Source of the DNA: a virus
Lineage: Duplodnaviria > Caudoviricetes
Length of the DNA stretch: 64,000 bases
Virus record (IMG/VR): IMGVR_UViG_3300009159_000072
Coordinates: 276 to 64,275 of that record
Strand: one strand, 5' to 3'
The notes under the pieces were generated by a model. It was not told where the DNA came from. It saw only the letters and a list, made by a program, of their open reading frames with translations, and did no database searches. Position 1 is the first letter of the stretch. The number at the start of each line of letters is the position of its first letter. Made by a program: the position numbers and the translations under genes. Shown here piece by piece: positions 36,386 to 40,824 of the stretch.

Positions 36386-36955
36386 ATGAGTGAATATTTA
36401 ACAATCAACACCTCGCCTGAGAAGGTCAAAAAAGAATTGGTGCCATATGAAGTATATGCTGATGGTAGTCCATCACTGTCTTTTAAGCCTGCCGAAATTC
36501 CAATGGAAGACATTAAGAATCCGCAGATGCAGGAGATGATTGAACGATTGAAATTGACAATGAAAGTCTATAATGGTTTAGGACTATCTGCTACACAGTG
36601 TGGTATGAATGCACGTTTATTCGTTATGGGTTCTGATGTATTTCAAATGGTCTGTATCAATCCAAAAATTGTAAAAACATTTGGTGATATGGAACGATTG
36701 AAAGAAGGTTGCTTGTCTTTTCCAGGTATGTACTTGTCGATTCCACGATTCAAAAAGATTGCCGTAGAATTCCAGAACCAAGAAGGCAAGACTATTACTA
36801 CCGAACTTGAAGGCATTTCTGCTCAAGTTTACCAGCATGAGCTTGACCATATGAACGGCGTGTGTTATACTAAGCATGTTGGACCTTTAGCTATAAAGAT
36901 GGCTAAACAGAAACGAGCAAAACTGATTAAGAAAATTAACGGAGCTACACGATGA
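36386..36955 (+). CDS. def: Peptide deformylase
   Basis: GLGLSATQ, EGCLSFP and QHELDH motifs. Confidence 0.93.
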   Translation: MSEYLTINTSPEKVKKELVPYEVYADGSPSLSFKPAEIPMEDIKNPQMQEMIERLKLTMKVYNGLGLSATQCGMNARLFVMGSDVFQMVCINPKIVKTFGDMERLKEGCLSFPGMYLSIPRFKKIAVEFQNQEGKTITTELEGISAQVYQHELDHMNGVCYTKHVGPLAIKMAKQKRAKLIKKINGATR

Positions 36956-38295
36956 CTATAGATGATTCAAATTGGACAGATGATATTAAAAAACAATGGA
37001 GTGATTGGTCAGACGCCAATCCAGTAGATTCGTTTCGTGATGTAGATTATGATGAATTGAAATCTCGTGTCATTACCGAACTCAGTTATGTTTCACAGAT
37101 GGATGTCAAAGAGTATACTTTGTATCAGAAGTGGTGTGAAGTGCATGAGAAGTTTCCTACACAAAAAATCTCAACTCTTTTCGGTGATGAAGTCAGTCTA
37201 CTTGATCCAGAACAAGGTGAATTGATTGACTCTATCAAAAATAATATCTGGATTCCAGAAAAACCTGAAGACTACCTAAAACTTGAACCTGTACTAGAGT
37301 ACACTGATGATTCTGGTGAGTTTTTCACAACAGGGGTTGACGGTACACAAATCACCAATTTGAAGAAACGTAGTAAGTCTTTACCTAAGACTTGTAACAC
37401 CGCACGTACATTCATCTCCTCAATGAAGAACAATTCAAATATTGGTCGCAATCTTAACTTCATGATAAAAGATTCGGTGACAAATAAATATCTCGGTATA
37501 ATTTGTATCTCTTCTGACTTTCTTGACTTAACACCACGTGATAGTTACATTGGCTGGCCACGTGATGTTAAGACACAGGGTAGAATGATTAATCACACCG
37601 CAATCGGCTCAACGATTGTTCCTTTCCAACCCCTTGGTTTCAACTATGTTGGTGGTAAGTTGCTTTCTCTACTTTGTCTATCTGATGATGTGCAAAATCT
37701 TTGGAAAAAATTATATGGTGATACCCTCGTTGCTGTGACTACAACTTCACTTTATGGTAAAACAAAAGCTGGCGGGTTATCTCAGTATGATAATTTGGAT
37801 CACTGGAAACCAATGGGGTTTACTTCTGGTTCGGTTTCGTTTGAACCAGCTAAAAGAACTCGTAAAGACATTGAAGCATGGTTGAAAAAGAATCATACTC
37901 AAAAATATTTTGAATGGTACGTTGCAACGAATCCTGCTGGTCAACCATTCAAACGTGACCACAAGAATCGTTCATTGAACTTCACGTATGGCAAGATGGC
38001 TGTACCAAAAGAGTTGATTCGTTCCGAACATGCCCGTGGTATCTATTTCAGTCCTTTGTATGATAACTCTCGTGAATTCTTGAGGAAAGAAATTGGTGAG
38101 GACCAACTGGTCAAATCATTTGATACTAGTACTGAAGCATTAGTAAAAATCTGGAAAGAAAAACATGCCAAAGGTCGTATCAAACAACTAATGAAAAAGA
38201 ATACAGTTTCCTATGAAACTCTTTTCTATGATGATTTGATATACATGAACTGGGAAGAAACTAAAACTAAATACCTCAGTCAGGTTGGTCGGTAA
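36952..38295 (+). CDS. DruA/DUF4338-like protein (putative GNAT/Mom-like modification enzyme)
   Basis: GRNL.F.IKD....KYLG.I, RD.YIGW, P.G.NY.GGKL and TTTSLYG...SQYD.L motifs, recognised from memory as the DUF4338 family. Confidence 0.7.
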   Translation: MTIDDSNWTDDIKKQWSDWSDANPVDSFRDVDYDELKSRVITELSYVSQMDVKEYTLYQKWCEVHEKFPTQKISTLFGDEVSLLDPEQGELIDSIKNNIWIPEKPEDYLKLEPVLEYTDDSGEFFTTGVDGTQITNLKKRSKSLPKTCNTARTFISSMKNNSNIGRNLNFMIKDSVTNKYLGIICISSDFLDLTPRDSYIGWPRDVKTQGRMINHTAIGSTIVPFQPLGFNYVGGKLLSLLCLSDDVQNLWKKLYGDTLVAVTTTSLYGKTKAGGLSQYDNLDHWKPMGFTSGSVSFEPAKRTRKDIEAWLKKNHTQKYFEWYVATNPAGQPFKRDHKNRSLNFTYGKMAVPKELIRSEHARGIYFSPLYDNSREFLRKEIGEDQLVKSFDTSTEALVKIWKEKHAKGRIKQLMKKNTVSYETLFYDDLIYMNWEETKTKYLSQVGR

Positions 38296-38320
38296 ACAAC
38301 CAGTTTTCTGGTTGTTTTTT
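38294..38320 (+). terminator. Hairpin/terminator after the DruA-like gene
   Basis: Perfect 10-bp stem AAACAACCAG-TTTT-CTGGTTGTTT followed by T residues. Confidence 0.65.
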
Positions 38321-38349
38321 ACAAAAAAAGCCTATATAATAGTATCACT

Positions 38350-38412
38350 GCGGTTTTCCGTGAAACGTGTCTCCCAAGACAAAAGTTGGTTAAACTCCAT
38401 AAAGCCGCTCCA
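38350..38412 (+). ncRNA. Miniature non-canonical tRNA-Gly(CCC)-like RNA, 63 nt
   Basis: Acceptor stem GCGGTTT/AAGCCGC plus discriminator T and encoded CCA; mini D-arm CGT-GAA-ACG; anticodon arm TGTC-TCCCAA-GACA; T-arm GTTGG-TTAAACT-CCATA. TATAAT at 38335-38340 upstream and a terminator downstream. Confidence 0.72.
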
Positions 38413-38419
38413 AATTTGA

Positions 38420-38453
38420 AGCCTGTTGTATTTTTACGACAGGCTATTTTTTT
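38420..38453 (+). terminator. Terminator after the tRNA-like gene
   Basis: AGCCTGTTGT-ATTTTT-ACGACAGGCT stem followed by A and a T-run. Confidence 0.7.
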
Positions 38454-38455
38454 GC

Positions 38456-38483
38456 TTGACATAAGTTATGGACCGTGTATAAT
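38456..38483 (+). promoter_or_regulatory. Consensus sigma70 (early) promoter
   Basis: TTGACA-16 nt-TATAAT upstream of the CobT-like gene. Confidence 0.75.
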
Positions 38484-40795: not shown

Positions 40796-40824
40796 TTGAC
40801 AGTGTGGTGCATTTGATGTATAAT
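40796..40824 (+). promoter_or_regulatory. Consensus sigma70 (early) promoter
   Basis: TTGACA-17 nt-TATAAT upstream of the CobS-like gene. Confidence 0.8.

Follow-up and report, generated by a model that had tools for sequence, protein, structure and literature searches.

A D-armless RNA related to tRNA-Gly, encoded beside DruA-family genes in uncultured phages, as a candidate non-decoding glycine acceptor

A stretch of 64,000 nucleotides (nt) of DNA from a large freshwater phage, positions 276 to 64,275 of IMG/VR record IMGVR_UViG_3300009159_000072 (estimated completeness of the record, 36%), encodes at positions 38350 to 38412 a 63-nt RNA that is related to tRNA-Gly, lacks a D arm, and ends in an encoded CCA. 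The whole stretch is referred to here as the window, and its features are on the + strand. The family to which the RNA belongs has ∼100 copies on uncultured phage contigs, and its near-constant linkage to an upstream gene for a protein of the DruA family (DUF4338), which has a predicted GNAT fold, is the strongest clue to its function. The interpretation that we favor, at roughly even odds (probability of about 0.5), is that the RNA is a translation-incompetent glycine acceptor that serves the adjacent DruA-family GNAT enzyme. The original prediction for this site, which was made from the sequence of the window, described a tRNA-Gly mimic that retained the identity elements for glycyl-tRNA synthetase (GlyRS) and had lost the features required for translation. 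Every coordinate that it gave for the element was correct on re-reading.

The acceptor stem of the RNA has 7 base pairs (bp), six Watson-Crick pairs and one U-G pair, formed between 38350 to 38356 and 38402 to 38408, and its 3′ strand is followed by the discriminator U (38409) and the CCA (38410 to 38412). The position of the D arm is taken by a single-stranded connector of 11 nt (38357 to 38367) in which conserved pairing is absent. As judged from the fold and from covariation, the remnant of the anticodon arm (38368 to 38381) is a 5-bp stem with a CCCA tetraloop. The T arm (38385 to 38401) consists of a five-position stem, in which three pairs are formed and the outer two positions hold G.A and U.U, and a 7-nt loop, TTAAACT (38390 to 38396), in which the first (U) and fifth (A) bases are kept. 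The D-stem 5′ strand, the D loop with G18 and G19, the T-loop TTC, and the 7-nt anticodon loop are all absent from the RNA, in agreement with the predicted loss of translation features.

Loci were first gathered via the two proteins that flank the RNA in the window. The 63-nt region is ∼80% identical even between phages with only ∼70% identity in the flanking protein, and more distant versions are 62 to 69 nt long, some of them in tandem. A model built from eight ungapped 63-nt copies (R1) had exactly one match in the window, the element itself (79.9 bits; the window copy is a seed member), and 37 matches in 96 loci. A second model (R2) was built from 11 divergent 67-nt relatives of another type (type B), with the type found in the window excluded. 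When both strands of the window were searched with R2, the sole match was 38350 to 38412, with exact ends (16.1 bits; E = 0.044), and this recovery by an independent model places the element beyond chance. A context-blind scan of all viral contigs with a degenerate pattern for the 5′ third and the 3′ end of the RNA yielded 106 stretches; 100 of the 104 loci examined were real copies, and the other four were chance matches in high-GC coding DNA. Two members that a stem filter had removed (L103 and L177) were restored by eye as real. Type A, the type of the window, has a CCCA or CCCC hairpin loop and a T loop of TTTAACT or TTAAACT. Type B has a hairpin stem of 7 to 8 bp, a five-base loop of the form NNCCN, and a T loop of TGCGAAT or TGCAATT. 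Tandem D-armless pairs, with members 2 to 4 nt apart under one promoter and one terminator, were found at four loci (L011, 847 to 986; L086, 4375 to 4512; L114, 1955 to 2094; and L160, 412 to 550), and in these pairs the loop is of the CCC type in one copy and of the UCC type in the other.

The covariation check that accompanied the original prediction was run across related phages, and compensatory changes were found in all three helices. In an ungapped alignment of 29 distinct 63-nt type A copies, 91% of cells were paired and 11 of the 18 pairs had changed on both sides. The covariation score was 0.415, compared to 0.159 in shuffled alignments (none of 500 reached 0.415), and fell to between 0.04 and 0.11 when the partner was slid by 1 to 3 columns. 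The corresponding ungapped alignment of 11 type B copies had 95.5% of cells paired, changes on both sides in 12 of 20 pairs, and a score of 0.623 versus 0.209 in shuffles (0 of 500). The first four acceptor pairs are invariant (29 of 29 and 11 of 11 copies), and pairs 5 to 7 covary. Three of five T-stem pairs covary in type A and four of five in type B. In the type A hairpin helix, five of six pairs have changed on both sides, the loop-closing pair included, and the CCC of the loop is invariant in all 29 copies. These results indicate that the element is under selection and is not the product of random decay, as had been argued from the window copy, and they refute the pseudogene alternative.

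Three details of the original prediction required correction. A 4-bp anticodon stem with a 6-nt loop had been proposed, but the loop-closing pair switches between U-A and C-G in type A and between U-A and G-C in type B, so that the type A hairpin is a stem of 5 to 6 bp with a 4-nt CCCA or CCCC loop, the type B loop has 5 nt, and neither is a relaxed anticodon loop. The shrunken D arm that had been drawn as CGT-GAA-ACG is broken in two of four window-type variants and is absent from the main type. The T-stem mismatches at 49-65 and 50-64 that had been noted are present in the window, but they are restricted to its subgroup (4 and 3 of 29 type A copies, respectively), most copies have five good T-stem pairs, and the argument about EF-Tu binding that was based on the mismatches is unsupported as stated. 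Two short open reading frames (ORFs) that run across the element, of 44 amino acids on the + strand and 47 amino acids on the − strand, were rejected as genes because substitutions preserve base pairs. Also rejected was a phage attachment site (attP) or a tRNA fragment: the element has both acceptor strands, these covary, and the relatives belong by taxonomy to a T4-like lytic lineage.

The sequence of the RNA points to glycine. G1-C72, C2-G71, G3-C70, G4-C69, U73, CCA, and the CC of the hairpin loop are invariant in all aligned copies, as are U54 and A58, the first and fifth bases of the T loop, and the 3′ GCTCCA is invariant in all listed copies. GlyRS can charge microhelices. The bacterial glycine identity set, as given in a passage of PMC9976931, comprises U73, G1-C72, C2-G71, C35, and C36. 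The acceptor-end determinants of bacterial GlyRS, together with the loop CC, are kept across ∼60 distinct copies, and the retention of acceptor-end identity elements that had been proposed for the window copy extends to the family.

Cross-matching to tRNA genes was equally specific. In a complete genome of 168,911 bp with 34 tRNA-model matches (G001), 33 of which were called by ARAGORN in the two stretches examined, R2 found the D-armless copy and, weakly, only the two tRNA-Gly genes. R2 cross-matched only the single tRNA-Gly of a genome with 22 tRNAs (G002) and only tRNA-Gly(UCC) in three cyanophages. By sequence, the RNA is thus kin of tRNA-Gly specifically, as opposed to other tRNAs, which bears out the derivation that had been proposed. 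The type B connector, TAGAAC, resembles the 3′ half of the tRNA-Gly D stem, and this likeness suggests that the RNA was derived from a phage tRNA-Gly by internal deletion; in the course of this derivation, the anticodon loop would have shrunk as well. Complete relatives encode a canonical tRNA-Gly(UCC), with or without tRNA-Gly(GCC), elsewhere in the genome.

The RNA class has been overlooked by annotation pipelines. ARAGORN called no tRNA across the 64-kb window, there was no Rfam match in the window at the gathering score, and the Rfam tRNA model (RF00005) had no match on the 171 nt from 38300 to 38470 even at an E value of ≤10, as had been expected of standard tRNA finders. Weak Rfam matches to RsaE and Qrr on the same 171 nt were below threshold and are probably due to chance. 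ARAGORN also passes over D-armless copies in two other genomes (G004 and G005). A blastn search of a phage database with an 801-bp region gave no match, and blastn with one type B copy gave a single short, irrelevant match. When 185,579 cellular genomes were screened for the pattern of the family, at least 120 stretches matched; no family member was seen among the matches listed, as judged by stem and loop criteria and by eye, and R2 scores in cellular genomes were at most 26 bits for the first 100 loci among the matches listed.

Linkage of the RNA to an upstream gene for a DruA-family GNAT protein had not been part of the original prediction. In the context-blind scan, a DruA-like gene ended ≤100 nt upstream on the same strand for 84 of the 100 real copies and 546 or 763 nt upstream for 2 copies. 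Four copies were located at the start of a contig, where the upstream context could not be judged, and 10 had no adjacent DruA-like gene. In 505 kb around 80 DruA-like genes, all R1 and R2 matches (36 loci) were just downstream of the gene. In the group of locus L053, the RNA starts 2 nt past the stop codon of the DruA-like gene, and one terminator serves both. Copies in tRNA clusters make up eight of the 10 that lack an adjacent DruA-like gene and one of the four that could not be judged; seven of these nine lie 5 to 8 nt behind a canonical tRNA-Gly(UCC), and in G004 the cluster order is Gly(GCC), Gly(UCC), D-armless copy. A gene matching PF14236, the Pfam family of DruA, is present elsewhere on three of five contigs with tRNA-cluster copies, and the other two contigs are fragments of 6.0 and 7.9 kb. 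Such near-constant linkage fits a dedicated substrate or cosubstrate better than a free-standing decoy. At two loci (L104, 4585 to 5346; L150, 2080 to 2624), the DruA-like gene and the RNA are set apart by an insertion of 0.5 to 0.8 kb whose conserved 3′ sequence is common to both loci.

The gene order in the window is SMC-like ATPase, peptide deformylase, DruA-family protein of 447 amino acids (36952 to 38295), RNA, peptidase-like protein of 756 amino acids (phrog_459), and AAA_5/CobS-like ATPase. The Pelagibacter myophages Mosig and HTVC008M, both Kyanoviridae, have the same gene order, with DruA-like proteins that are 59.7% and 53% identical in amino acid sequence to that of the window. R1 had no match at the syntenic site of the marine isolates HTVC008M, Mosig, and S-SCSM2R. 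The site equivalent to that of the RNA in marine pelagiphages (L209, 4117 to 4252; L208, 4673 to 4807) holds a common intergenic motif, GTAGAACA, followed by a GC-rich hairpin around TGCGA...TGACGCA. The first part of this motif resembles the type B connector, and the motif may be a remnant of the RNA or another small RNA.

Transcription signals frame the RNA in the window. On the upstream side, the DruA-like gene ends in a terminator-like hairpin with a T run (38296 to 38322), an inverted repeat around TTTT that was recognized by eye and was not listed by the consensus terminator scan. On the downstream side, the RNA unit is bounded by the promoter of the peptidase-like gene (TTGACA-16-TATAAT, 38456 to 38483). 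A putative sigma-70 promoter of the small RNA itself can be read at 38312 to 38340 (TTGTTT, a 17-nt spacer, and TATAAT at 38335 to 38340), with a −10 box that ends 9 nt ahead of G1; the promoter scan gave only an overlapping, weaker site here (38318 to 38345). The RNA is followed by a predicted intrinsic terminator (38420 to 38453), a hairpin with an 11-bp stem and a 4-nt loop (38420 to 38445) plus a T run, which dominates the fold of 38346 to 38455 (z = −4.5). Among the relatives, a promoter-like site is present 3 to 60 nt 5′ of the RNA in 44 of 86 contexts, several with perfect 12-of-12 matches, and a terminator-like site is present 3′ of it in 59 of 86. Among 20 sequencing runs, no RNA data set with the locus was found. 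Many relatives have a consensus promoter 8 to 24 nt ahead of G1, and perfect TTGACA-17-TATAAT sites are found 10 nt before G1. The promoter at 38456 to 38483 is itself a perfect 12-of-12 sigma-70 consensus match, and another such match precedes the CobS-like gene (40796 to 40824).

The protein proposed as the partner of the RNA matched PF14236 at 72.8 bits (cutoff, 27; E = 3.4e-20) and also phrog_19197. An AlphaFold2 model made from 21 homologs had a pLDDT of 81 and a pTM of 0.78, and the top Foldseek matches of the model in the PDB were GNAT acyltransferases. The best TM score among solved structures was that of Mom of phage Mu (8bv8; TMq, 0.27; TMt, 0.53; probability, 1.0; E = 5e-3). Against BFVD, a phage Mom was at rank 13 and GNAT enzymes were found; the other matches were uncharacterized relatives from giant viruses and phages. 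On the basis of the model, the neighbor has a GNAT fold, and DUF4338 is called a GNAT domain in a passage of PMC10853773. By sequence, the neighbor is a member of the DruA family and not of the Mom family. An NCBIfam search with the neighbor gave no match, and a search of ESM Atlas with the N-terminal 150 residues returned only DruA-type viral clusters, with no named fold. A model of residues 150 to 395 alone had a pLDDT of 40.7 and was unusable. The closest structural relatives outside phages in BFVD are uncharacterized proteins of Klosneuvirus-type giant viruses (Faunusvirus, Yasminevirus, and Dasosvirus). A GenBank record (PQ898602.1) labels a cyanophage homolog "methylcarbamoylase mom."

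The cultured relatives carry an unusual tRNA-Gly in the same neighborhood. The single tRNA-model match in HTVC008M (147 kb) is an atypical tRNA-Gly(ACC) (L212, 1501 to 1574; KC465899.1, 91140 to 91213), located directly after cobS and ∼4 kb downstream of the DUF4338 gene. The anticodon ACC is very unusual, the D loop lacks GG, and the T loop is AGCGTTA. A homologous tRNA-Gly(ACC) of 74 nt, preceded by a TTGACA promoter of its own, is present in Mosig (L215, 775 to 870; MT647606.1, 7779 to 7852, − strand) and likewise has a D loop without GG and an aberrant T loop. This gene is annotated as a 31-amino-acid hypothetical protein (Mosig_000011), was missed by both ARAGORN and RF00005, and was flagged only by R1 and R2. 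Both tRNAs share with the window RNA the lineage, the neighborhood (DUF4338, peptidase, and CobS), the GCGG...CCGC-UCCA end, and a noncanonical T loop; they differ from it in length (74 nt), in the presence of a D arm, and in a loop of the normal 7 nt (UUACCAA), and the HTVC008M copy is, unlike the window RNA, called as a tRNA by ARAGORN and Rfam. Judging from these features, the two are probably full-length cousins of the D-armless family. Since the cultured relatives, too, pair an odd tRNA-Gly with a DruA-family gene, the pairing is a theme of the whole lineage, of which the window RNA is the most reduced form.

How a glycine acceptor RNA might serve the neighboring enzyme can be outlined from these observations, with transcription, processing, charging, exclusion from translation, and the donor role all inferred. 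The RNA would either be transcribed from a promoter of its own, with a leader a few nucleotides long, or be excised from the mRNA of the enzyme; RNase P would remove the leader at G1, and the 3′ end would be trimmed back to the encoded CCA. Host GlyRS would then load glycine by way of the conserved acceptor end and the CC loop. Without a D arm, an elbow, and a 7-nt anticodon loop, decoding would be impossible, and it is proposed that the glycine would in this way be kept out of translation. The retained U73 would also guard the glycyl ester against D-aminoacyl-tRNA deacylase in the absence of shielding by EF-Tu (background on U73 and this deacylase in passages of PMC9976931, PMC6097841, and PMC4880308). 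The glycylated RNA would be a dedicated substrate or cosubstrate of the upstream DruA-family GNAT enzyme, most likely the glycyl donor, by analogy with Mom of phage Mu and the Fem transferases. A broader evolutionary version of this proposal, which we put forward only tentatively and consider clearly less probable than the proposal itself, is that a lineage of pelagimyophages and cyanomyophages evolved a private aminoacyl-carrier RNA by reducing tRNA-Gly to what GlyRS, RNase P, and the GNAT enzyme need, and that this RNA delivers glycine to the DruA-family transferase and does not compete with translation.

The glycine might be passed to phage DNA, to a protein, or to another acceptor. The DruA-like gene of cyanophages is located inside the replication module, by clamp-loader genes (L210, 2204 to 3325; L219, L221, and L223): in Sf-CH8 it separates gp44 from gp62, in S-SSM7 and S-SCSM2R it is upstream of gp62, and in S-PRM1 it is downstream of a clamp-loader gene. 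This location mildly favors DNA. In pelagiphages, the DruA-like gene follows a peptide deformylase gene, which leaves a protein target possible. The start of the DruA-like gene in the window overlaps the deformylase stop codon by 4 nt (ATGA, 36952 to 36955), an arrangement that suggests translational coupling, and the two genes are also adjacent in Mosig.

Several results weigh against the proposal that the RNA is a glycine donor for the neighboring enzyme. The enzyme does not need the RNA, because 44 of the 80 DruA-like loci have no downstream element. Absence extends to close relatives: the element is missing from L018 to L023, the closest by DruA-like protein (79% amino acid identity), and from L002 and L015, whose peptidase is 92 to 94% identical, and no D-armless copy was found in six cultured cyanophages with DruA-like genes. 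With regard to the enzyme, hhalign gave no homology to Mom (probability, 0.2 and 0.1), Pfam found only DruA, with PF25680 absent at an E value of ≤10, and sequence and profile searches of the PDB gave nothing. The Foldseek E values are marginal (∼5e-3), and GNAT enzymes that depend on coenzyme A score alike, so that a dependence of the neighbor on aminoacyl-tRNA is inferred from the linkage and not from the structure. With regard to the RNA, the CC of the loop is invariant, but the loop has only 4 to 5 nt, and its equivalence to positions 35 and 36 is uncertain. The T stem of most copies is well paired, which weakens the case for exclusion from EF-Tu. The members of tandem pairs differ in the first base of the loop (UCC-like and CCC-like), which hints that codon reading might matter.

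It is possible, if unlikely, that the RNA is a working minimal tRNA-Gly in the style of the D-armless mitochondrial tRNA-Ser, which would be charged and brought to the ribosome, would read GGG or GGA, and would act as a third glycine isoacceptor. The tandem pairs with UCC-like and CCC-like loops would be in accord with such a role, as would the presence of type B copies in phage tRNA clusters at nine loci, seven of them closely behind tRNA-Gly(UCC). The 7- to 8-bp stem of type B also resembles the extended anticodon stems of mitochondrial D-armless tRNAs, and the five nucleotides inside its covarying closing pair equal the count between positions 32 and 38. That closing pair is itself an obstacle, since it is Watson-Crick and covaries, leaving loops of 5 nt in type B and 4 nt in type A. 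Furthermore, most type B copies have G at position 33, the D arm and elbow are missing, and the nine window ORFs scanned (five against Pfam) included no phage EF-Tu. The canonical tRNA-Gly(UCC) of complete relatives already reads GGA and GGG, and a decoding role would leave unexplained the 84 of 100 copies behind one enzyme gene. About equally improbable is a decoy or sponge, in which an abundant mimic of the tRNA-Gly acceptor end soaks up host defense enzymes that attack tRNA-Gly, independently of the neighboring gene. Candidate enzymes include the GNAT toxins TacT and AtaT2, which acetylate Gly-tRNA-Gly; the toxSAS FaRel2, which attaches pyrophosphate to the CCA end; and nucleases that act on the acceptor or the anticodon. 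The conserved parts of the RNA are those that such enzymes read: the specificity of TacT comes from U73 and G71 according to a passage of PMC9976931, and FaRel2 checks the acceptor stems of tRNA-Gly and tRNA-Thr and has been tied to phage defense. Strong consensus promoters suggest a high copy number, and the element comes and goes among close relatives, as counterdefense genes do. What a decoy fails to explain is the tight, same-strand, and sometimes cotranscribed linkage to the DruA-family gene and the conservation of the CC loop and the connector. In a possible variant, the phage GNAT protein is itself the enzyme that is regulated by the RNA.

Least probable among these alternatives is an RNA that is never aminoacylated and that acts in cis as a tRNA-like processing or stability element, a form of RNase P punctuation for the transcripts of the DruA-like and peptidase genes, or that acts as a regulatory small RNA. 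Punctuation of transcripts by tRNA-like elements is a known principle, and in some relatives the RNA starts 2 nt past the stop codon without a promoter of its own. C-rich loops are found in small RNAs that pair with G-rich sites. A processing role accords poorly with the promoter-like site that the RNA has to itself in the window, as in 44 or more of 86 contexts, often together with its own terminator; moreover, the invariant U73-CCA, G1 to G4, and CC loop are not needed for processing, and copies in tRNA clusters have no mRNA to punctuate.

If the RNA is a glycine donor for the DruA-family enzyme, it would be the first case of a virus encoding a D-armless, non-decoding tRNA with an enzyme partner of its own, and DruA/DUF4338 proteins, among them the DruA of the defense system Druantia type I, would be transferases that depend on aminoacyl-tRNA and may, like Mom, modify DNA. 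The proposal provides a testable hypothesis, the use of glycyl-tRNA-like donors, for an uncharacterized protein family that is a component of Druantia and is widespread in abundant phages of oceans and lakes. If the acceptor is DNA, abundant phages of SAR11-type bacteria and cyanobacteria would carry a Mom-like hypermodification, with consequences for restriction evasion and virome sequencing. With this family, the known viral RNA genes gain a class that escapes annotation, the related tRNA-Gly of Mosig being one example. As far as the literature searched shows, the RNA would be the first D-armless tRNA derivative outside organelles. No D-armless or non-decoding phage tRNA-Gly derivative and no link between DruA and tRNA was found in a literature search that did not extend to subscription journals and supplements, and the main text of the Mom study (PMC13219725) mentions neither DruA nor a dedicated RNA.

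Other RNAs and enzymes resemble parts of this system. The tRNA-like structures of plant viruses and the tRNA-like domain of transfer-messenger RNA (tmRNA) are aminoacylatable mimics of the acceptor and T arms that do not decode. These are parts of larger RNAs with valine, histidine, tyrosine, or alanine identity, and no Rfam family of this kind was matched here. D-armless mitochondrial tRNAs have extended anticodon stems. The D-armless mitochondrial tRNAs of animals, such as tRNA-Ser(AGY), share with the phage RNA a connector in place of the D arm and intact acceptor and T arms (PMC4013460). They decode through 7-nt loops, some with an adapted EF-Tu, whereas the phage loops are closed to 4 to 5 nt; type B, which has the lengthened stem in common with the mitochondrial tRNAs, is a borderline case.

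The closest enzymatic parallel for the proposed partner is Mom, which moves glycine from Gly-tRNA-Gly onto the adenine N6 position in double-stranded DNA, as stated in passages of PMC13219725. Mom accepts all three Escherichia coli isoacceptors, refuses Gly-tRNA-Ala, and probably reads the acceptor end (PMC13219725, same passages). As is proposed for the neighbor of the RNA, Mom is thus a phage enzyme with a GNAT fold that takes glycine from the acceptor end of tRNA-Gly. In contrast, Mom (PF25680) relies on host tRNAs and lacks a dedicated RNA, whereas the neighbor belongs to PF14236, is twice as long, and has a chemistry that is only predicted. The non-proteinogenic tRNA-Gly species of staphylococci keep GlyRS identity, have lost the D-loop GG and the T-loop consensus, and feed a GNAT-fold transferase, as is proposed for the phage family. 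In Staphylococcus aureus, these isoacceptors are the donors for the peptidoglycan bridges made by FemXAB (PMC7826273). The S. aureus RNAs are chromosomally encoded, full cloverleaves with normal anticodon loops, and serve enzymes of the Fem family, whereas the window RNA is viral, has lost the D arm, belongs to a family with hairpin loops of 4 to 5 nt, and is linked to an enzyme of PF14236 and not FemAB.

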